Shown piece after piece: positions 3,847 through 50,628 of a DNA stretch of 64,000 nt. Origin of the DNA: Terriglobia bacterium (GTDB lineage: Bacteria > Acidobacteriota > Terriglobia > 20CM-2-55-15); the NCBI GenBank assembly GCA_965218585.1, contig CBDCLE010000012.1:96001-160000 (forward strand), in the 5' to 3' direction. The translations under genes and the position numbers were made by a program. Numbering within the stretch: position 1 is the first letter of the stretch; every line of letters starts with the position of its first letter. Below the pieces are notes generated by a model, which saw only the letters and a list, made by a program, of their open reading frames with translations, had not been told where the DNA came from and made no database searches.

Positions 3847-3939
3847 TTCAACACGAAGTTAACGAAGGGCACGAAGGAACACGAAGATGATTTTTCTTCA
3901 AACACCTCACCTTCGTTAACTTCGCGTCTTCGTGTTGAA
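3847..3939. repeat. Empty bipartite inverted-repeat element (ACACGAAG-unit family)
   Basis: TTCAACACGAAGTTAACGAAGGGCACGAAGG...CTTCGTTAACTTCGCGTCTTCGTGTTGAA. Confidence 0.85.
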
Positions 3940-21227: not shown

Positions 21228-21403
21228 TTCAACGCAGAGACGCAGAGACGCAGAGGAAGAAAAGACGGGTCAGGTTGCCTACATCTAGGTCGACCGCAAC
21301 CAATCGGATTGGCAAGAACATTTCGTTGGAACCCATAAAAGTTGATCTAGTCTACTCTCGAACAGCCAATCTTATTCTCTGCGTCCCTGCGTCTCTGCGT
21401 TAA
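21228..21403. repeat. Bipartite inverted-repeat element (ACGCAGAG x3 arms, ~120-bp core)
   Basis: TTCAACGCAGAGACGCAGAGACGCAGAG...CTCTGCGTCCCTGCGTCTCTGCGTTAA; terminus overlaps nusB stop. Confidence 0.85.
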
Positions 21404-23078: not shown

Positions 23079-23244
23079 CAACGCAGAGACGCAGAGACGC
23101 AGAGAAAGAAAAGGACAGGCTGTCTAAATTCCGACCAGCCACCGTCTATTGGGTTTGCAATGACGCCTTGGGAAACCACGACAGCTCATTCAAACGCAAC
23201 CCTGCACAACCAAACCTCTGCGTTCTCTGCGCCTCTGCGTTGAA
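23079..23244. repeat. Bipartite inverted-repeat element (ACGCAGAG x3 arms, ~110-bp core)
   Basis: CAACGCAGAGACGCAGAGACGCAGAG...CTCTGCGTTCTCTGCGCCTCTGCGTTGAA. Confidence 0.85.
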
Positions 23245-26973: not shown

Positions 26974-27066
26974 TTAACCACAAAGGCGCAGAGATACAAG
27001 GAAGACAGGATTTCCTTCCAAAGAAATCAAAGAAGATTTTTCCCGTGCCTCTGTGCCTCCGTGGTT
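26974..27066. repeat. Bipartite inverted-repeat element (CCACAAAG/GCAGAG variant)
   Basis: TTAACCACAAAGGCGCAGAGATACAAG...GTGCCTCTGTGCCTCCGTGGTT. Confidence 0.65.
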
Positions 27067-27755: not shown

Positions 27756-27826
27756 TAACGCAGAGACGCAGAGGAAGAACGAAATAGACTGCCAACGCCT
27801 CTGCGTCTCTGCGCCTCTGCGTTGAA
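27756..27826. repeat. Short bipartite inverted-repeat element (ACGCAGAG family)
   Basis: TAACGCAGAGACGCAGAG...CTCTGCGTCTCTGCGCCTCTGCGTTGAA between convergent stops. Confidence 0.85.
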
Positions 27827-32770: not shown

Positions 32771-32916
32771 TCCGTCTTCCCGTCCCATAGCATAACTAAA
32801 GCGTAATCCCTCCTACGGGCTAAGGTTTCTGCCTGACTCGAACAACCCCCGATCGGAAATTGTTTTCACCGCGAAGACGCAAAGGAAAACAGGATAGGCT
32901 GTGTAAATTCCTACAG

Positions 32917-34281
32917 GAGGTCATTACAAAAGGTGTGTAAAAGTCATCAGGCGGCGGCCTTCGATTTCATCACGACTCTGATGCCGTCAGCGAATTGCTG
33001 ACCATCATAGACCTCTTGTAAGAGTTCGGATCCTTTTAAGTGTCGCCAAGCCTTCTCAGCGACACGTAGTAGCTTCCAGATCATTGCCGTTGCATTCTCG
33101 ACACGCTTGAATCGGCGAGCGGCGTTGGTGCGGAGGCGAACCATGTCGAAGGGCGACTCGACGATGTTGGTCGTTCTCAGATGCACCCAGTGTTGTTTCG
33201 GGAACTCATAGAAAGTAATCATCCGGTCCCAGTCCCGCAACAGCGTCTCACCCGCTTTGGGATAGTTCTTCTCATATCGGCGGACGAACTGATCCCGCTT
33301 TCGTTCGCAGGCCGCGCGGGAGTTCGCGAAGGCCATCCCATGAAGCAGCTGTCTGGCCGCGGGCTGCTCGGTCTTCGGCAGATGATCGACCACGTTGATC
33401 GACTTGTGGTTCCAGCAGCGTTGTTCCTGGCCCTGGGGCTGTTGCTCGGCCAGCGCGGACCAGATGCCCAGGTGACCGTCCGCGACAGTCAGCCGTCCCA
33501 GCTTCAGGCCCCGTCTCTGGAGATTGCGCAGAATGCGGCTCCAGGACTCCTTGCTTTCCCGCTGCCCGCTCTCACAGGCCAACAGCACTTTGCGCCCGTC
33601 TGACAAGGCTCCGATGATCACCAGCAATGCCGCTCGCTCTTTCGCGATCCCCGCTTTCACGTACAAGCCGTCTGCCCACTGGTACACGACCTCGAGGCCG
33701 GACAGGTCCTGCTGGACCCACTCGTCATACTCCAACTGCCAGGTCGATTTCAGTCGTTGGATCGATGCTCGCGACAACGGAGCGCCAGCGCCAAGCAGTC
33801 CGCGCATGGCCTGCTCGAAGTCCCCTGTGGCCAGACCGTGGAGGTAGAGATCGGGAAATAGCTCGCCCAGCTGTTTCGATTTCCGTCGAAAATACGGCAG
33901 GATCTGACTCTCGAACCGCTCGGCGGTGTTTCGAACCCGAGGTCGTCGAACCTCCATCGTACCGTTCATCATTGCGAAGCGTCGCGGCTTCCCGTGACCG
34001 TTCCGGTATCCTCGTCGATTCGGACTCCGCTCCGACTTTTCCCGACCCAGAAATTGAGTGACTTCGTCCTCGAGCAGCTCCTGTAGCCAGACTTGGACCC
34101 GGGATCGCGCCCAGTCCTCCAAACCTTCATACGCGTTCGTTGACGCCACTGATGCCGGTATGTTCTTCTTCTTCATGGGTGGTGTACCTTTCTCCCGATT
34201 GCTGCCGGGATTGCTTACGGTTTCGAATTCACCGAAAGCGTACACCGCCTTCTCTTTTTACACACCGATTGGAACGACCTC
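32917..34281 (-). mobile_element. IS256-family element, copy 1 (no target duplication)
   Basis: IR ends GAGGTCATT...TGTGTAAAA / TTTTACACACC...GACCTC; transposase 32947-34245 with YRNG, QRCWNHK, LRTTNIVES. Confidence 0.95.
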
Positions 34282-34344
34282 GTCGCAGGATTCGCGGGAA
34301 TCAGTCTGGTCTTCTACCCGTTTTAGATCCTATTAGATCCTAAC

Positions 34345-34478
34345 TGTAGGTGCGGGCTAACTAGCATCGGGCCCACCGTCCTTTGGACGGTCCCCCCATG
34401 CCGGAACGCACAAATCAAACCTGTAGGTGCGCTCTGTGAGCGCACAAATGAGATGTGCGGTCGCAGACCGCACTTACA
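34345..34478. repeat. GTAG-type REP/REPIN-like palindromic cluster
   Basis: TGTAGGTGCG...CGCACAAAT twice in direct orientation plus inverted GTGCGGTCGCAGACCGCACTTACA. Confidence 0.6.
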
Positions 34479-34490
34479 GAAAAAAAGAAC

Positions 34491-35231
34491 ATGGACATAT
34501 TTCAACTCGAAAACACGGTCAAGAAACGCGGAGATCAGTTCGTGCTGGGACCGTTGGACCTTCACCTTGAACCGGGAGAAATCCTCGGCATCATGGGTCC
34601 AAACGGAGCGGGCAAGACGACTCTGTTGCGACTGCTCTGGGGTTTTCTGCGCCCGGATGCGGGTCGCGTATCGGTGTTCGGCAGAACACCCCACCTCGAA
34701 CAGGTCTGGATCCGACTCCGCGCCGGATATCTTCCCGAATCTCTGCGCTTCTACGACTGGATGAGTGTGGAACGGTTTCTCTCATTCATTGCGGGCTTCT
34801 ATCCGTCATGGGACTGGGGGCGCGCGTTCGAACTCCTCGATCAGTTCGGTCTCAAGACAACGCAGACGATCGGAACACTCTCTAAAGGAAACCGCGTGAG
34901 ACTCGGCCTGGTTGCAGCAGTTTCCCATCGTCCCCAACTGCTGATTCTTGACGAACCCACGGCTGGACTGGATCCTCTGGTCCGCGTCGACATCCTGGAC
35001 TTCCTCAAACGTTCCGCTCTTGGGGATCGGACCGGAATTGTCATGTCCTCCCACGTTTCGGACGATCTGGACCGGATCGCAGATTCCGTTCTGATGTTGA
35101 ACGAAGGGAAAGTCGTGGAATACGCGCCGACCAAGGTCCTGCTCGATCGATCCAACGAGGTTCAACTGGAGGCTGTGTTTTTAAATGCATTGGGTCGGAT
35201 TCCCACGCCTGGCGTTCCACATCGCGCGTAA
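34491..35231 (+). CDS. ABC transporter ATP-binding protein
   Basis: GPNGAGKTT, LSKG, LILDEPT, SSH. Confidence 0.9.
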   Translation: MDIFQLENTVKKRGDQFVLGPLDLHLEPGEILGIMGPNGAGKTTLLRLLWGFLRPDAGRVSVFGRTPHLEQVWIRLRAGYLPESLRFYDWMSVERFLSFIAGFYPSWDWGRAFELLDQFGLKTTQTIGTLSKGNRVRLGLVAAVSHRPQLLILDEPTAGLDPLVRVDILDFLKRSALGDRTGIVMSSHVSDDLDRIADSVLMLNEGKVVEYAPTKVLLDRSNEVQLEAVFLNALGRIPTPGVPHRA

Positions 35232-35821
35232 GGACTGGGCCGAAGCACAGCGAGTCATCCTTGGCCTGACCCTGGGCCTCATGGTTCCAGCCTTGCTGGT
35301 CCGTTTTGCTCCAGGCCGATCCGACGATTTCGCCAAAGGTCTGCTTGCGGGCCTACTTGCGGGAGCAGGGTTTGGATACGCTCAGTTCTGCTTCATCAAC
35401 GAACGGCAGCGCCAAACGCTGGATCTCCTGTTAAGCCTTCCTGTGGAGCCACGAAAGCTGGTCCTCGCCAAATACGTCCCTTTACTCCATGGTCCTGTTC
35501 ACGGTGAACGTCCCTGGCCTATTCGTTCCGGACCCACGATTGATCTACGTCACTAATGCCGCTGCACTCTCATTGGCCACCCTCTTCATGGCCACGACGG
35601 TGATCTCAGACAAACCCTGGGCCTCACAGATCCCCATCTGGTTCCTCTTCGTCTTCATCCTCCCCATCCAGCGCATACTTGAACGCTACTACCCGGATGG
35701 CCTCGGCCTGCTGGAAACCCTTACGGCGAATCCCATCTTGATCGCCACGCTCCCCCTTCTCCTCTCACCTGTCCTGGTGATCATTTCCGTATGCTTTTTC
35801 AACACGAAGACACGAAGTTAA
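35185..35821 (+). pseudogene. ABC-2 type permease, frameshifted
   Basis: NERQRQTLDLLLSLPV..LVLAKY then frame change near 35480. Confidence 0.7.
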
Positions 35822-36201
35822 CGAAGGAAATCATCGGGTGTGCTATTGACGTCCTTCGCGAGTTAGGGCCCGGACTGTTAGAGTCGGTTTACGAAGAATG
35901 TCTGTCTATCGAATTGCAGAAAAAGGGGATTCGAGTCGCACGTCAGCTCCATCTTTCCGTTATCTATAAGGGACGGCCCGTCGCTTCAAGTCTTCGGCTG
36001 GACTTGATCGCAGGAGTCAAGGTGATCGTCGAGATCAAGTCTGTGGAGCACTTACTCGCGGTTCATCGTGCGCAGCTTCTCAGCTATCTACGCTTGGCAA
36101 ACTTTCCCAGTGGATTGCTCATCAACTTCAACGTTCCTCTCCTCAAGGACGGCATCAAACGCGTCCTCAACCTGAACACATTATCAAGTGATTCCGACTA
36201 G
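35791..36201 (+). CDS. GxxExxY protein (PD-(D/E)XK-like)
   Basis: LGPGLLESVYE, RLDLI..KVIVEIKSV, AQLLSYL, GLLINFN. Confidence 0.93.
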   Translation: MLFQHEDTKLTKEIIGCAIDVLRELGPGLLESVYEECLSIELQKKGIRVARQLHLSVIYKGRPVASSLRLDLIAGVKVIVEIKSVEHLLAVHRAQLLSYLRLANFPSGLLINFNVPLLKDGIKRVLNLNTLSSDSD

Positions 36202-36381
36202 ATCATCTTCCCTTCTTCGTGATCTTCGTGCCCTGGTGTGGGAGTTCTGAACGTACAGGCCGGTAGTAATGCACAGGTGAGGTCAAGACGTAGAGGGTAC
36301 TTGTGACACGAAGAAAACGAAGCACCACGAAGAATGAACGCCCTAAACACTTCGTGCCAAGGAATCCTTCACAAACACCCT

Positions 36382-36903
36382 CTACAGCAACTTCGAAAGG
36401 ATTTCTTCGGGTATACGTTCACGCAGTTCGGGGGAGGCTTCCAGCAGGCGGGAAATATCTGCCAAGTCTTTCTGTCGCTTACTGGCTCGCCGGGAGGAGT
36501 CCAACACGGCCCATACCTTTCCCTGTAGCACATCTTCGACGCGAGCGACGCGAAGAGTCATTCCAAGAACATCATGTTCAGCAGAATGGGGAAGGAAAGC
36601 GAAATAGCGCGGATCAGTCTGAATCTGAACCCGGATACTGGATTCGGAGGCGGACACGTTTATGCTGTGTTCAAATCGCTCTACGTGGAAACGTTCGGCG
36701 AGCTCACTTGTTAAAGAGTCTATGCTGTCGGCGGCAATGACAACATCAAGATCCAAGCTGACTACCGGCTCTACGTAAGCGTTTACCCCCTGGCCGCCAA
36801 TCACACAGTAACTCGCGCCGCTGGCTTCGAGCAAGGCCACGAAACGTTCTAGAAAATCCTCTCGATCCACAGTCACCGCCTTCCAGAACTCCAATTGTTT
36901 CAT
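36382..36903 (-). CDS. Nucleotidyltransferase-fold protein (AbiEii/DUF6036-like)
   Basis: VIGGQGV...SLDLDVV and KRQKDLADI motifs; likely start MKQLEFW at 36903. Confidence 0.7.
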   Translation of the reverse strand: MKQLEFWKAVTVDREDFLERFVALLEASGASYCVIGGQGVNAYVEPVVSLDLDVVIAADSIDSLTSELAERFHVERFEHSINVSASESSIRVQIQTDPRYFAFLPHSAEHDVLGMTLRVARVEDVLQGKVWAVLDSSRRASKRQKDLADISRLLEASPELRERIPEEILSKLL

Positions 36904-36956
36904 GCGACTTCTCCGCCAACCTCTTATTAATTCATAGGCGAAAAGTATGACACACA

Positions 36957-38321
36957 GAGGTCGTTCCAATCGGTGTGTAAAAAGAGAAGGCGGTGTACGC
37001 TTTCGGTGAATCCGAAACCCTAAGCAATCCCGGCAGCAATCGGGAGAAAGGTACACCACCCATGAAGAAGAAGAACATACCGGCATCAGTGGCGTCAACG
37101 AACGCGTATGAAGGTTTGGAGGACTGGGCGCGATCCCGGGTCCAAGTCTGGCTACAGGAGCTGCTCGAGGACGAAGTCACTCAATTTCTGGGTCGGGAAA
37201 AGTCGGAGCGGAGTCCGAATCGACGAGGATACCGGAACGGTCACGGGAAGCCGCGACGCTTCGCAATGATGAACGGTACGATGGAGGTTCGACGACCTCG
37301 GGTTCGAAACACCGCCGAGCGGTTCGAGAGTCAGATCCTGCCGTATTTTCGACGGAAATCGAAACAGCTGGGCGAGCTACTTCCCGATCTCTACCTCCAC
37401 GGTCTGGCCACAGGGGACTTCGAGCAGGCCATGCGCGGACTGCTTGGCGCTGGCGCTCCGTTGTCGCGAGCATCGATCCAACGACTGAAATCGACCTGGC
37501 AGTTGGAGTATGACGAGTGGGTCCAGCAGGACCTGTCCGGCCTCGAGGTCGTGTACCAGTGGGCAGACGGCTTGTACGTGAAAGCGGGGATCGCGAAAGA
37601 GCGAGCGGCATTGCTGGTGATCATCGGAGCCTTGTCAGACGGGCGCAAAGTGGTGTTGGCCTGTGAGAGCGGGCAGCGGGAAAGCAAGGAGTCCTGGAGC
37701 CGCATTCTGCGCAATCTCCAGAGACGGGGCCTGAAGCTGGGACGGCTGACTGTCGCGGACGGTCACCTGGGCATCTGGTCCGCGCTGGCCGAGCAACAGC
37801 CCCAGGGCCAGGAACAACGCTGCTGGAACCACAAGTCGATCAACGTGGTCGATCATCTGCCGAAGACCGAGCAGCCCGCGGCCAGACAGCTGCTTCATGG
37901 GATGGCCTTCGCGAACTCCCGCGCGGCCTGCGAACGAAAGCGGGATCAGTTCGTCCGCCGATATGAGAAGAACTATCCCAAAGCGGGTGAGACGCTGTTG
38001 CGGGACTGGGACCGGATGATTACTTTCTATGAGTTCCCGAAACAACACTGGGTGCATCTGAGAACAACCAACATCGTCGAATCGCCCTTCGACATGGTTC
38101 GCCTCCGCACCAACGCCGCTCGCCGATTCAAGCGTGTCGAGAATGCAACGGCAATAATCTGGAAGCTACTACGTGTCGCTGAGAAGGCTTGGCGACACTT
38201 AAAAGGATCCGAACTCTTACAAGAGGTCTATGATGGTCAGCAATTCGCTGACGGCATCAGAGTCGTGATGAAATCGAAGGCCGCCGCCTGATGACTTTTA
38301 CACACCTTTTGTAATGACCTC
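36957..38321 (+). mobile_element. IS256-family element, copy 2
   Basis: Transposase 36993-38291; 8-bp target duplication GACACACA. Confidence 0.97.
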
Positions 38322-38681
38322 GACACACAGCAGTAACTACCCTTAGCAACAAAAGTTCCATTCTTCCTTAGCACCTCGGTCTCTATGCTTCATGTCCATC
38401 TTGTTCGTGCCTTCGTGTTGAAGCTCTCAAAGTCTGGATCGTCGGGAATGAACACTCGAGCTCCGAAACACAGGGGATCTCTTGCGCGAAGTTCCCTGAT
38501 GAACGAAACTCCACGAAGATTGGGTACCTAAGAGGCTTCGTGTCTTCGTGTTGAAGTTCTCATTCTCCCGTTTGTCTCACCTTATCCATACAAACAAATC
38601 GCTGGATAAACGTACTTCTTCGAGCCTCATTCATAGGTTCAGTCACTTAACGATGGAACCAAGACTGCGTTCAACCCGACC

Positions 38682-39193
38682 ATGGGTTACCCGATCGTCC
38701 ATCAGCACGACGCCAATGACTGCGGGCCGGCATGTCTTGCCATGGTGGCCGCCCATTACGGGAAGCGGCAATCTATCGCTCGATTAAGAGAGCACGCGGG
38801 ATCCTGAGCGTTTCCATCGCGGACAACATCCGTCTCGGGCGCGCAGACGCCTCTGCGATGGAAGTCCGACGGGCGGCTGAACTCGCAGGAGCCGCAGAAT
38901 TCATCGAACAGTTGCCGCTCGGGTACAACTCGCTCGTCGGTGAGCGGGGGACGACACTATCCGGGGGTGAACGCCAGCGGCTGCTCCTGGCACGTGCGAT
39001 TCTGGTCGACCCTCCGATTCTGATTCTGGACGAACCCACGAATCATCTCGACGCGGCCTCGACCGAAGCCGTCCGTAACCTCATCGACCAACGAAAACAC
39101 GAGAACCAAACGACGATAATTATTTCCCACGACGAGCTCCCCGCCCAAAGGACCGTTCCTATAGGGACCCTCCCCTATGCCGTCGCGAATTGA
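38682..39193 (+). pseudogene. Peptidase C39-containing ABC transporter (PCAT) with large internal deletion
   Basis: MGYPIVHQHDANDCGPACLAMVAAHYG fused out of frame near 38801 to SIADNIRLG...LSGGERQR...LILDEPT. Confidence 0.8.
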
Positions 39194-40349
39194 GTTGAAC
39201 CTTGGCCGAAGCCCCCGGCTCCTGGGTACAACGGTGTATGTCCTGGCGATTCTTCTTGGTGTTGCCATCACCTGGGGTTATTTCACCGAAGTAGACGTCG
39301 TCGTCCGCGCGCCCGGCATCGTCCGGCCTGATGGAGAGGTCGTTCGAATCACTTCGGAAATCGGTGGAACCGTCGAGGCTGTCCACGTCGAGGGAGGCGA
39401 GGTCGTACACACGGGCGATGTCCTCGTCCGATTGGACGACACGTCGGTCCAGTTGGAACGGAACACCGTCGAGCAACAGATGGCGCTGCTCGCCGAACAG
39501 ATGGCCGACATTGACCGTAAGATCCGCGATGCAGGCGAAATTCATCATTTAGAAGACACGCGACTGGCAACAGAGATCGCCGCGGCCCGAGAGGATCTCG
39601 TCCAACGGAGACAGGAACATGCGTCTCAGGTGGCCTCAGCCTCGCTCCGCCTTGCGCAGGCCAAAGACGAATACTCGATACATCGGCAACTCTTTGAAGA
39701 GGGGCTCATCTTGCGTCAGGATGCAGATCGCTCGACCACCGAGTTCCGGCTCGCCGAGGCCCAATTGGAAGAAATAGCCCACCGGCAGGCTTCAAGCGCC
39801 AGTCTCGATTCACTCCTTGAAACCCGGAATGTCGTTAGTGCCGAGTTCGCATCCCTCGAACGGGATCTCAGGTCCGAAGTGATGCCGATTGAAGCCCGAT
39901 TGACCGAACTGCGTTCGCGACTCGAGCAAACCGACCTGGAAACCCAACGCCTCACGATCCGCACGCCTGTGAAGGGGCAGATCACGCTCCTGCCGACCGT
40001 TCACACTGGAGAACGCGTTGAAGCCGGCAGTCTCGTTGCTGCAGTGGCCCCAATTCCCGTCCGGCTCATAGTCGAGGCCCTGGTCAGCAACGCCAAGGCT
40101 CAGGACGTCGAACAGGGTCAAGCTGTCCGGCTCCGCTTTGACGAGGGCGAAACAATCGACGGCATCGTCTTCTCCGTCAGCCCCGACGCCCGATTCAACG
40201 ATTCGTCCGCTCCTACATACCATGTCCTCATCGCTCCCGACACAGTCGACCTCCGACTGGGTCTCGCAGTGGATGTCCGGCTGATCACACGCCAAGAGCG
40301 CGTCCTCACTCTTCTCTTCGACCGGATCAAGCAGCCGTTTCGGGAGTGA
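39177..40349 (+). CDS. HlyD-family secretion adaptor
   Basis: TM anchor, GGTVEAVHV..G..V..GDVL, coiled coil, IRTPVKG. Confidence 0.88.
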   Translation: MPSRIELNLGRSPRLLGTTVYVLAILLGVAITWGYFTEVDVVVRAPGIVRPDGEVVRITSEIGGTVEAVHVEGGEVVHTGDVLVRLDDTSVQLERNTVEQQMALLAEQMADIDRKIRDAGEIHHLEDTRLATEIAAAREDLVQRRQEHASQVASASLRLAQAKDEYSIHRQLFEEGLILRQDADRSTTEFRLAEAQLEEIAHRQASSASLDSLLETRNVVSAEFASLERDLRSEVMPIEARLTELRSRLEQTDLETQRLTIRTPVKGQITLLPTVHTGERVEAGSLVAAVAPIPVRLIVEALVSNAKAQDVEQGQAVRLRFDEGETIDGIVFSVSPDARFNDSSAPTYHVLIAPDTVDLRLGLAVDVRLITRQERVLTLLFDRIKQPFRE

Positions 40350-40413
40350 GCAAGTATGGAACGCGTCGAAAGCGCCTCCCATGAGATCCGAAGACCGAGC
40401 GTATAATGACCCC

Positions 40414-41076
40414 ATGCGAACCCATACCGATATCCGGCGGGCTCTGGACCATCTACCCGAAGCGGCATTGCTTGTGGTCGAAGGGGTTGCCTGGGCAGAG
40501 TACGAGGAGTTCCTTAGAGATCTGGGGGATCGCTCCGGCCTGCGCGTCACCTACGATCGAGGACGACTCGAGATCGTGACGACGTCGGCCGGGCACGAAG
40601 CCCGAAAGGAATTGATTCTTCGGCTCGTCCACGTGCTGTCGGAAGAAATGGGAATCGAACTGGAATCCAGGGGTGGCATGACTCAAAAAAGAGAGCAGGA
40701 GGGCAAGGGTACGGAGCCAGACACGTGTTTTTACGTCACCGACGTTGAACGAATCATCGCGAAGGACGAGATCGATCTCAAAGTCGACCCACCTCCTGAC
40801 ATCGTCGTGGAAATCGACAAGGCGAATCAATCTCATTCTAAGTTCCCGATCTACGCTGCCTTTCGAGTGCCCGAAATCTGGCGCTACGACGAGGGGGGAC
40901 AGCGGGCCGAGATGTTCGCCCTCCAGGCGGATGTATATGTCCGCATTGAGGCAAGCTGTTTCTTTCCGATACTGACTTCTGAGGTATTGACCCGGTTTGT
41001 CGAGCAAAGCCAGACCCAGGGACAGTCGGTGACCCTGTCCACGTTCCGGGAATGGGTCCGGACAGGACGAGGTTAA
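40414..41076 (+). CDS. Uma2 (DUF820) family endonuclease-like protein
   Basis: RVTYDRGRLEI, EPDTCFY, PPDIVVEID, IYAA..VPEIWRYD. Confidence 0.9.
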   Translation: MRTHTDIRRALDHLPEAALLVVEGVAWAEYEEFLRDLGDRSGLRVTYDRGRLEIVTTSAGHEARKELILRLVHVLSEEMGIELESRGGMTQKREQEGKGTEPDTCFYVTDVERIIAKDEIDLKVDPPPDIVVEIDKANQSHSKFPIYAAFRVPEIWRYDEGGQRAEMFALQADVYVRIEASCFFPILTSEVLTRFVEQSQTQGQSVTLSTFREWVRTGRG

Positions 41077-41348
41077 CCCCGAGCGATGACGAACGGGAAC
41101 TGGTCCTGGAACACGATCTGGCGATTTCAGACATCGTTTTCTGGGAACTCGCGAAACTTATACAACTCGATCGACTGCGTCTGGATCTATCGAGCGACCC
41201 ATTCCAACGACGGCGCCGACATCTGACAGTTTTCCCCATCAGCCCGGAAATCGCTCGAACCAGTACCTGTTTGGACTTCTCGGCGGACCTCGCCGACGAA
41301 ATCATTGCTGCTACGAGCGTGGTCCATACCGTGGCTGACCAGAGATAG
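41075..41348 (+). pseudogene. PIN-domain (VapC) toxin fragment
   Basis: AISDIVFWELAKL, D(L)ADEIIAATSVVH; no start and truncated end. Confidence 0.7.
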
Positions 41349-41468
41349 AAGAATCCTGCAGTCGCACCTGGCCCCGCTCGCGTGACATTGATTTCACAGA
41401 ATGCGCTTTCCCATCGGCACCATACATGCGACTTTAGTAGTCATATTGAATAGACCGTTATAGCCATA

Positions 41469-41762
41469 ATGATAAACACGTCAATATCCAGACTGAAGTC
41501 AATGCTGAGTGAATACCTGGCCAAGGTCAAAGCCGGCGACGAGGTGGTGGTCACTGAGCGGGGTCGACCGATCGCCAAGATCGTACCGATTCGCCAGGAC
41601 AATTCTACGATCTCACCCCACCTTGAGCATCTCGCTCGCTCCGGCCAGATCCAACTCGGATCTGGAAAACTTTCCAAGGAATTCTGGAAACTGACCCGAC
41701 CCGATGACAAGACCGGGGCTGGACTGAAATCCCTGCTCGATGACCGAGCCGTAGGACGGTGA
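41469..41762 (+). CDS. Phd/YefM-family antitoxin
   Basis: LKSMLSEYLAKVKAGDEVVVTERGRPIAKIVP. Confidence 0.9.
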   Translation: MINTSISRLKSMLSEYLAKVKAGDEVVVTERGRPIAKIVPIRQDNSTISPHLEHLARSGQIQLGSGKLSKEFWKLTRPDDKTGAGLKSLLDDRAVGR

Positions 41763-42244
41763 AATTCTGGGATGCATCGTCTATCGTGCCACTCTGCCTA
41801 GAAGAACCCAACGGCCACGATTGGAGGGCTGCTTCCGACATGACGAAGCCATGATCGTATGGTGGGGCAGCCGGATCGAATGCCACTCCTCGTTTGCCCA
41901 TCTTCGTCGCGAAAACCTCCTCTCGAGGATCGAGGAAACTCAGGCTCGAGAAGTCCTGATACAACTCGAAGACGTCTGGACCGAAGTCTTACCTGGTAAT
42001 GAAGTTCGCGAAAAAAGCAAGCCGAGCACTTTCGATCCATCCCCTGAGGGCGGCCGATTCCCTCCAACTCGCCGCTGCACTGATCTGGGCTGACAAAAAT
42101 CCAACCGGTTTTGAGTTTGTCTGCCTCGACGACCGCCTTCGCGACGCGGCAGACCATGAAGGTTTTTCAGTCCTACCCCTTCCCAACCAAGATTCGTACA
42201 AGAGCCGAAAATCTCATGCACACCCAGATCGGTGCTCAAATTAG
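41759..42244 (+). pseudogene. VapC PIN toxin, frameshifted
   Basis: VKFWDASSIVPL start overlaps antitoxin stop; LRAADSLQLAAAL and FVCLDDRL lie in other frames. Confidence 0.8.
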
Positions 42245-42346: not shown

Positions 42347-43711
42347 GAGGTCATTACAAAAGGTGTGTAAAAGTCATCAGGCGGCGGCCTTCGATTTCAT
42401 CACGACTCTGATGCCGTCAGCGAATTGCTGACCATCATAGACCTCTTGTAAGAGTTCGGATCCTTTTAAGTGTCGCCAAGCCTTCTCAGCGACACGTAGT
42501 AGCTTCCAGATTATTGCCGTTGCATTCTCGACACGCTTGAATCGGCGAGCGGCGTTGGTGCGGAGGCGAACCATGTCGAAGGGCGATTCGACGATGTTGG
42601 TTGTTCTCAGATGCACCCAGTGTTGTTTCGGGAACTCATAGAAAGTAATCATCCGGTCCCAGTCCCGCAACAGCGTCTCACCCGCTTTGGGATAGTTCTT
42701 CTCATATCGGCGGACGAACTGATCCCGCTTTCGTTCGCAGGCCGCGCGGGAGTTCGCGAAGGCCATCCCATGAAGCAGCTGTCTGGCCGCGGGCTGCTCG
42801 GTCTTCGGCAGATGATCGACCACGTTGATCGACTTGTGGTTCCAGCAGCGTTGTTCCTGGCCCTGGGGCTGTTGCTCGGCCAGCGCGGACCAGATGCCCA
42901 GGTGACCGTCCGCGACAGTCAGCCGTCCCAGCTTCAGGCCCCGTCTCTGGAGATTGCGCAGAATGCGGCTCCAGGACTCCTTGCTTTCCCGCTGCCCGCT
43001 CTCACAGGCCAACACCACTTTGCGCCCGTCTGACAAGGCTCCGATGATCACCAGCAATGCCGCTCGCTCTTTCGCGATCCCCGCTTTCACGTACAAGCCG
43101 TCTGCCCACTGGTACACGACCTCGAGGCCGGACAGGTCCTGCTGGACCCACTCGTCATACTCCAACTGCCAGGTCGATTTCAGTCGTTGGATCGATGCTC
43201 GCGACAACGGAGCGCCAGCGCCAAGCAGTCCGCGCATGGCCTGCTCGAAGTCCCCTGTGGCCAGACCGTGGAGGTAGAGATCGGGAAGTAGCTCGCCCAG
43301 CTGTTTCGATTTCCGTCGAAAATACGGCAGGATCTGACTCTCGAACCGCTCGGCGGTGTTTCGAACCCGAGGTCGTCGAACCTCCATCGTACCGTTCATC
43401 ATTGCGAAGCGTCGCGGCTTCCCGTGACCGTTCCGGTATCCTCGTCGATTCGGACTCCGCTCCGACTTTTCCCGACCCAGAAATTGAGTGACTTCGTCCT
43501 CGAGCAGCTCCTGTAGCCAGACTTGGACCCGGGATCGCGCCCAGTCCTCCAAACCTTCATACGCGTTCGTTGACGCCACTGATGCCGGTATGTTCTTCTT
43601 CTTCATGGGTGGTGTACCTTTCTCCCGATTGCTGCCGGGATTGCTTACGGTTTCGAATTCACCGAAAGCGTACACCGCCTTCTCTTTTTACACACCGATT
43701 GGAACGACCTC
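42347..43711 (-). mobile_element. IS256-family element, copy 3
   Basis: Transposase 42377-43675; 8-bp target duplication TTCACGCC. Confidence 0.97.
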
Positions 43712-50549: not shown

Positions 50550-50558
50550 CGATTTTCT

Positions 50559-50628
50559 TTAACGCTGAGACGCGGAGGGCGCAGAGGCCGCTCGCCAGAA
50601 TAGATATAACTCTGCGTCTCTGCGTTGG
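50559..50628. repeat. Short bipartite inverted-repeat element (ACGCAGAG family)
   Basis: TTAACGCTGAGACGCGGAGGGCGCAGAG...CTCTGCGTCTCTGCGTTG. Confidence 0.75.

Follow-up and report, generated by a model that had tools for sequence, protein, structure and literature searches.

The interval between the permease and PCAT genes

The window analysed here is the whole stretch of 64,000 nucleotides from a Terriglobia bacterium. The present text concerns the GxxExxY (PDDEXK_3) family gene that it carries and the short repeat arms around this gene. The arms are made up of tandem 8-10 bp units, which are non-palindromic CRCVRAG words, and they form extragenic elements that are inverted doublets with a variable spacer, capable of folding into hairpins. 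The gene occupies a slot whose constant left neighbour in the family is an ABC-2 permease (35185..35821, + strand) and whose right neighbour is PCAT, represented here by a remnant with an internal deletion (38682..39193, + strand). A 2-nt deletion near 35485 splits the permease frame, and the final codons and stop of the permease (35819-35821) lie inside the left arm (35798..35827, + strand), which consists of TTCAA followed by three tandem 8-9 bp units of the CACGAAG type. The GxxExxY open reading frame (ORF) of 136 aa (35791..36201, + strand) starts with an ATG within the permease, and a degenerate right arm (36207..36243, - strand) closes its cassette. The rest of the slot is occupied by a decayed short arm pair with a weak hairpin (36305..36358, z -1.2), a nucleotidyltransferase-fold gene with a weak, AbiEii-like PF08843 match (36382..36903, - strand), an IS256-family insertion sequence (36957..38321, + strand), a right arm with the terminus CTTCGTGTTGAA (38388..38422, - strand) and a last pair (38498..38555) that combines a degenerate left arm (38498-38518) with a final right arm (38536-38555).

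A first-pass annotation had proposed 35798-38555 as a single autonomous element, a view that is rejected here. It had overlooked the IS256 copy, which makes up 1365 of the 2758 bp of the block, is flanked by its own 8-bp target duplication (36949-36956 / 38322-38329) and is not related to the arms; 60 near-full copies exist in the genome, and the window holds three that are 99.5-100% identical (32917-34281, 36957-38321 and 42347-43711). The final right arm is orthologous to a second right arm in two relatives, G001 and G004, so that it is ancestral in the genus and predates the block. The nucleotidyltransferase has no counterpart found in four congeners, and it was rejected as regular cargo because the loci of its homologues mostly lack arms: by eye, about one of 17 other loci has CACGAAG-type arms, and up to three more have other tandem units nearby. 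No target-site duplication was found around the block or around a gene-less element at 3847-3939. No excision joint appeared in the contigs of four sequencing runs, although contigs lose rare variants; contig joints from 35826/35830 to 38404 were rejected as excision products, since they carry other spacers and resemble gene-less elements of other loci. The block is an accretion of a swapped gene cassette, a passenger gene, an IS256 copy and an ancestral arm.

The surrounding ABC/permease-PCAT-HlyD operon is decaying (35185-39193), with its permease frameshift and large PCAT deletion. Short-read contigs show no difference from 34300-36984, and one substitution and one 1-nt gap relative to 38294-40500; both the permease split and the PCAT deletion are therefore real. 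After HlyD, the window carries a Uma2 gene and similar modules (40381-42244).

GxxExxY proteins and the arms that flank their genes

The identification of the ORF as GxxExxY, already proposed in the first-pass annotation, is borne out by matches to TIGR04256 (145 bits, cut-off 35) and PF13366 (141 bits, cut-off 22), and the window's genome (95% complete) has this one copy only. The predicted structure (pLDDT 94) is a minimal restriction-endonuclease fold, shared by nearly all the top structural matches. The nearest structures are of the Cas4, RecB/AddA and Hjc types, the best Foldseek row being Cas4 SSO0001 (E 5e-3) and the VIA Z reaching up to 7.7; nothing in the structural search attained E<=0.001 or Z>=8. 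The conserved residues E41, D71, E81, K83, Q95 and Y99 are intact in the window's allele. GxxExxY is a predicted PD-(D/E)XK nuclease fold with catalytic-type residues, and the fold alone indicates no function. The window's allele departs from the family at H22 -> L, a position where 102 of 105 homologues retain the histidine, and at V74 -> A, and it lacks about 24 nt, including the GTG start, that are present in sibling alleles. The first-pass observation that the left arm encodes the N-terminus is correct for the sequence as it stands, but it owes this only to the loss of the native start region. This loss and the leucine at a near-invariant histidine suggest that the allele is atypical and may be crippled.

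The PDDEXK_3/GxxExxY family comprises 19,465 clusters at 50% identity (E<=0.001) and is often multicopy in the class Terriglobia, with up to 14 matches per genome. Two tandem GxxExxY domains occur in the proteins P0001, P0003 and P0005, the second with a catalytic motif that looks degenerate by eye. In the available part of PMC3424549 the family is listed as 'Unknown' with multiple transfers, in keeping with a horizontal spread, and in the accessible text of 10.1101/2021.01.26.428298 it is named a single time, next to a reverse transcriptase and described as cas4-like. No publication tying GxxExxY, PF13366, PDDEXK_3 or TIGR04256 to flanking arms was found in a search that mostly left subscription journals and supplements outside.

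The link between the gene and the arms is real, general and widespread. The arms named in the first-pass annotation exist where it placed them, and their 12-mer terminus occurs 17 times in the genome, against 1, 1 and 1 times in three Markov-4 simulations; a looser arm pattern occurs 23 times, against 0, 0 and 1. The same annotation had proposed an enrichment of arms at GxxExxY homologues. This was found with a pattern-free score that compares upstream DNA with reverse-complemented downstream DNA: among the best 80 of 500 loci, taken from one-per-species genomes and including several close kin, 61 scored >=14, a level that was reached by 2 of 266 shifted windows and by 133 of 633 cross-locus pairs. 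An arm unit pattern, composed after viewing the homologue flanks, matched in forward orientation upstream of 58 of these 80 loci, in reverse orientation downstream of 62 and on both sides of 51, and in 43 of 3238 distant windows. Class-wide, in a set of 201 genomes whose kin are not independent, the median number of arm matches was 52.5 in genomes with the gene (PF13366 at E<=1e-10, n=104) and 13 in those without it (n=97), while a reversed-pattern control gave medians of 8 and 9, respectively. At least 40 arm matches were present in 57 of the 104 genomes with the gene versus 8 of the 97 without it, and the abundance difference reached p<0.05 in four of six testable families. Arms equally abundant without the gene would, according to the first-pass annotation, have spoken against such a link; abundance tracks the gene, yet these eight genomes with no detectable gene are arm-rich. 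Arms are decayed in G002, where the gene was not found, and in G004, which has a pseudogene.

Allele exchange and overwriting of arm-bounded slots

The same permease has the gene at its 3' end in G001 (two copies), G007, G017, G019, G021, G044 and G045, and the same slot holds a truncated gene in G013 and a pseudogene in G004. None of 13 relative loci has a clean empty permease-PCAT junction. The loci of G014, G006 and G016 were considered as empty-site alleles and dismissed: they carry neither gene nor arms, yet their intervals do not align as clean junctions. G018 was also discarded, as its permease has other neighbours. Contrary to the insertion into an empty permease-PCAT site proposed at first, the gene has long resided in this slot across the family. 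In G006 (L134) and G016 (L136), which have no GxxExxY gene at the slot, two or three tandem permease 3' halves with insertion sequences between them lie upstream of PCAT.

The residents of this slot differ between sister genomes. Between G007 and G017 the permease DNA is 95% identical and the PCAT start 92-100%, with the GxxExxY gene at 60%; between G044 and G045 the permease DNA is 92% identical and the gene 61%, the alignment ending about 25 bp outside the left arm. Identity between the swapped alleles is 35-36% at third codon positions and 77-81% at second positions. Third positions are thus saturated and second positions kept, which indicates that old alleles were swapped in and speaks against local hypermutation as the source of the divergence. 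(The G004:C2 locus, L131, was dropped as independent evidence, being 99.6-99.8% identical to that of G007, L137, across genera and probably a bin contaminant.) The window's allele is, over its 5' part, 62% identical to the G001 gene and 52% to the G004 pseudogene; the latter two are 79% identical to each other, with permeases at 75-81%. These values suggest that the allele was replaced in the window's genome (G000) too, probably recently, in which case its arms may not have spread or the allele may be crippled.

Arm types follow the resident alleles in five relatives. Signatures were taken from the gene flanks after part of these genomes had been seen, and their counts in G001/G007/G017/G044/G045 are 81/2/1/4/100 for the G001/G045 type, 0/56/30/0/0 for the G007 type, 9/158/264/3/12 for the G017 type, whose pattern includes inner units, and 0/0/0/61/42 for the G044 type. 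Each signature is maximal in the genome of its own gene, and the type of the sister lingers at a lower level in three of four cases. Between G045 and its sister G044, for instance, the arm type of the G045 gene numbers 100 versus 4 copies.

The sites of a new arm type were traced by comparing 271 kb of G045 with G044 (93% identical; clusters typed by eye). Of the 25 arm clusters in this stretch, 14 are of the G045 type, two of them being the gene's own arms. All the other 12 have an orthologous site in G044, and each of these sites carries another repeat, of the G044 type (eight), the CACGAAG type (two) or the GGGGACAG type (two). As a background, a rough tiling by ORFs places a repeat in 28 of 105 G044 gaps that are at least 80 bp long. 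No clean empty site was found among the 12. Common descent accounts for five of the seven G044-type clusters that G045 carries, and gain in G045 is therefore the simpler reading.

The comparison of G007 with G017 (96% identical) provides a second case, in which an arm lies at the edge of 18 of 69 divergent tracts versus 7% of conserved tiles. Thirty-six short tracts were hand-picked; among the 31 that could be displayed, 8 are swaps between unrelated repeat families and 6 are swaps between arm subtypes or spacers. [quoted passage not shown] The replaced pieces carry 10-60 bp beyond the arms and end near gene ends. Mismatch beside the replaced sites is 4.0-4.7% within 100 bp and 2.6-3.0% farther away, compared with 2.8-3.7% at controls (18 of the 21 replaced sites and 9 of the 10 controls were scored), so co-conversion tracts appear at most weak.

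Gene-less elements of the window were compared in the same way. At four of their slots G001 and G003 have other elements, and what remains in G002 and G004 is mostly decayed. The long CGCAGAG-type element at 21231..21401 faces other elements in G001, G003 and G007 and decayed arms in G002 and G004; in the slot of the long element at 23080..23241, G001 has a CGCAAAG type, and G002 and G004 have arms of the CACGAAG type; the slot of the element at 26977..27065 (hairpin z -3.6) holds a long CGCAAAG type in G003; and that of the short element at 27757..27823 (z -4.5) bears a long element in G001 and G003. The CACGAAG-type element at 3847..3939 (DNA hairpin z -5.0) has the same 12-bp termini as the block, as first reported. 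The left half of a long element (32868..32916, + strand) is interrupted by another IS256 copy, and a short CGCAGAG-type element lies at 50558..50626.

The elements sit at gene ends, often provide stop codons and keep the same slots through the family, and several form strong hairpins. These traits would suit arms that act mainly as RNA under selection, either as a stem around the ORF, as in rRNA intervening sequences, or as operon-tuning hairpins, with GxxExxY as an RNA- or hairpin-binding partner that does not rearrange DNA. This explanation is improbable, as it leaves unaccounted for the wholesale replacement at slots, the sharp-edged allele swaps and the arm decay in G002 and G004.

Equally improbable is a transposon or MITE pair of autonomous type, in which 35798-38555 would be the complete element and its copy-paste derivatives, the gene-less elements, would have entered empty sites. 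The matching termini of the block and the gene-less element, the multicopy, horizontally spread family (PMC3424549, in its available part) and the related spacers at different slots of genus g1 would agree with it. The best paralogue identity among 24 paired elements of the window's genome, however, has a median of 69% and a maximum of 78%, target duplications, clean empty sites and excision joints were not found at the sites and in the contigs described above, and the final arm is ancestral. The MITE analogy of the first-pass annotation fails on the same ground, since the gene-less elements are not near-identical copies.

The new pieces may come from two sources. The long spacer family of genus g1 occurs at different slots, and an in-genome relative at z>=5 was found for 5 of 5 elements in a 16.6-kb stretch of G001 and for 7 of 14 in the window's genome, which implies that whole elements are copied between slots. 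In these long elements (e.g. 21231-21401), the inner GGGTT...AACCC stem of the spacer is conserved over slots and genomes. For two lineage-specific spacers no in-genome donor or paralogue was found. In the pairs that were usable (7 of 15), the spacers and left flanks of old and new alleles were no more similar within a slot than between slots (n=7), and an orthologous origin of the replaced intergenic DNA was not detected. The gene tsaE, enclosed between arms, is 79% identical between G007 and G017 in a 96% background, which implies that a relative's orthologous locus was its source; between G007 and the more remote G023 the identity is 82%. Donors of orthologous DNA in relatives are suggested by both tsaE and the permease tail. 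Slot-to-slot copying and donors from relatives both fit cutting followed by recombinational repair. The tsaE copies lie at L206:624-1214 (G007) and L234 (G017), and in G044 and G045 the gene has each genome's own arm type on both sides.

Other repeats use the same slots. At least four other families trade them, including the CGCAGATT-type, the GTCCGAG and TTGGCTA 7-mers and the GGGGACAG-type, at loci such as L192-L231 (G007, G017) and L265-L291 (G044, G045). Genes for four-helix-bundle proteins (PF05635, the 23S rRNA intervening-sequence protein) were inspected by eye at 11 loci: three have clear inverted arrays on both sides, and most have 7-mer arrays on at least one side; L295, L296, L298 and L312 are loci with inverted 7-mer arrays. 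A 340-bp MITE with near-identical copies often lies within arm elements (G007 L201:9286 and 11891, L205:17675 and others). Toxin-antitoxin pairs (Phd/PIN and HigBA-like by ORF reading) and Uma2-like genes occur between GxxExxY and PCAT or beside arms, and accumulate at L133 (G021), L132 (G013) and the L221:18709 region (G017). A Y1 transposase was rejected as the arm partner: among 18 matches in five genomes, 9 loci were read and none carries these arms.

Proposed mechanism and comparison with known systems

Taken together, these comparisons suggest, with a probability of about 0.58, that GxxExxY is the sequence-specific enzyme of an overwriting system similar to REPIN-RAYT, in which an unrelated PD-(D/E)XK nuclease takes the place of the HUH transposase. 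The protein would bind its cognate tandem units and make cuts at or next to DNA that is bounded by arms or forms hairpins. Recombination and repair by the host would then write an arm-bounded piece, coming from another slot or from the DNA of a relative, over the resident piece. A new allele would launch another wave of arms, and arms would decay once the gene is lost. A broader, only tentative version is that GxxExxY alleles drive an allele-specific overwrite at many loci: the nuclease would mark or cut hairpin slots genome-wide and exchange what they contain, enclosed host genes like tsaE among it, for DNA bounded by its own arms, coupling gene exchange with intergenic rewriting by a chemistry unrelated to that of RAYT, integrons or DDE transposons, and competing with the four-helix-bundle and TIRYT repeats.

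In the main rival explanation, GxxExxY would be a specialised passenger. A process of the host, combining hairpin processing and homologous recombination with the DNA of relatives, would exchange arm-bounded slots, and GxxExxY, four-helix-bundle genes, tsaE and toxin-antitoxin genes would all ride between arms. Switched intergenic regions are reportedly a parallel for such a process. Swaps between unrelated repeat families in 8 of the 31 G007/G017 tracts, the orthologous donor of tsaE, the two spacers devoid of an in-genome donor, the arm-rich genomes devoid of the gene and the parallel layout of the four-helix-bundle 7-mers all keep a shared host mechanism alive. It is nevertheless rather unlikely, because arm abundance tracks the presence of the gene over the 201 genomes, replaced pieces have sharp edges and show little co-conversion, sharing a slot does not make the spacers and left flanks of old and new alleles more alike, a single spacer family is spread over different slots of genus g1, and the nucleotidyltransferase, in contrast to GxxExxY, is mostly arm-free elsewhere.

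Several observations weigh against GxxExxY being the overwriting enzyme. The window's genome has 13 arms of its own gene's type versus 45 of the AACGCAGAG type, and the former are commoner in G001, G003, G007 and G023, in which either no gene was found or its arms are different. The arm unit also maps imperfectly onto the protein tree. Arm type, which the first-pass annotation suggested comparing with GxxExxY clade, follows the resident allele for the signatures of the five relatives but not for the window's genome. A tree test of allele replacement in G000, made by the approximately unbiased method on 120 columns with a quick search and without 5 rows that were truncated or duplicate, gave p 0.46 and 0.86; it did not reject a joint grouping of the G000 and G001 alleles (p 0.46) and did not confirm the replacement. 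The abundance difference is not significant within the families f4 and f5. The eight arm-rich genomes with no detectable gene comprise G003 (123 arms; assembly 97% complete in 2 contigs), G023 (311 arms) and six more; a protein search of G003 and G023 found no GxxExxY and no permease match in either, which is compatible with loss or non-assembly of the home locus without proving either. The gene's arms could match the genome merely because its slot is overwritten like any other. The four-helix-bundle genes, whose proteins are not known to have a nuclease motif, are laid out between arms in a parallel manner, and the same slots are taken by similar 7-mer arrays. Finally, the support is strong but comparative, and binding and cutting remain proposals.

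What appears to be new here, from genome comparison, is a single permease-PCAT slot with swapped alleles of about 60% identity in sisters whose flanks are 92-95% identical, the peaks of arm types, the overwriting of older repeats and the tsaE swap. A large family listed as 'Unknown' in the available part of PMC3424549 gains a candidate substrate, and the matched allele-arm pairs from sister genomes make its specificity testable. If the proposed function is true, populations of REPIN-like repeats arose on at least two occasions with unrelated enzymes, repeat overwriting in conserved intergenic spaces gains a second, far smaller model enzyme, and a route is provided for the switching of intergenic regions and small enclosed genes between species.

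In its fold and in its E..D..ExK plus QxxxY-type residues, GxxExxY resembles Cas4/RecB-like and Hjc nucleases; no Fe-S cysteines occur among its conserved columns. The arms are presumably unlike integron attC sites, no attC or IntI search having been made. MITE-transposase pairs of the IS256 and IS630 types have terminal inverted repeats and occur in full and gene-less forms. GxxExxY elements share these features, but they have no DDE enzyme, no target duplication and no near-identical copies, and they replace instead of inserting. Four-helix-bundle genes are likewise small ORFs between inverted short-unit arrays, but they differ in protein fold and in unit, and the GxxExxY slot has a permease and a PCAT gene as its neighbours and is not in rRNA, where intervening sequences lie. 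The TAACTGA repeats of PMC4679880 are viewed there as possibly regulatory, and the accessible text contains none of the terms 'endonuclease', 'four helix bundle' and GxxExxY. In TIRtrons/TIRYT, as described in the available part of PMC3733652, a gene also lies between terminal inverted repeats that form dispersed families, and the GGGGACAG-type repeats, which share slots with the arms, match the GGGGWSAS consensus given there; TIRYTs, however, are tyrosine transposases, a class whose loci read here lack these arms.

The closest parallel is REPIN-RAYT, the first-pass analogy that fits well. As far as the available portions of 10.1101/2021.07.10.451892 and PMC3116915 go, that system has a constant enzyme locus, doublets and decay after enzyme loss, and the accessible text of the REPORTH preprint (10.1101/2024.10.14.618302) describes repeats in conserved spaces that are overwritten when the enzyme is exchanged. 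Here too, as in REPIN-RAYT and the REPtron, an enzyme gene lies between its own repeats, settled in one extragenic space; the inverted doublets are of about 100 bp with variable spacers and decay upon gene loss; and the repeat type tracks a resident enzyme and is overwritten in place, the window's own genome being the exception. The differences concern the enzyme, a 125-aa PD-(D/E)XK protein instead of an HUH/Y1 transposase (Pfam returns PF13366 only for the arm-flanked gene, with no HUH/Y1 domain), and the repeats, tandem 8-10 bp units instead of GTAG- or CGTC-tagged palindromes. Whereas the REPIN-RAYT enzyme is single-copy and vertically inherited, GxxExxY alleles are swapped between sisters, often multicopy and horizontally spread, and enclosed host genes are swappable. 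The GxxExxY-arm system is REPIN-RAYT-like, and not a member of that system.

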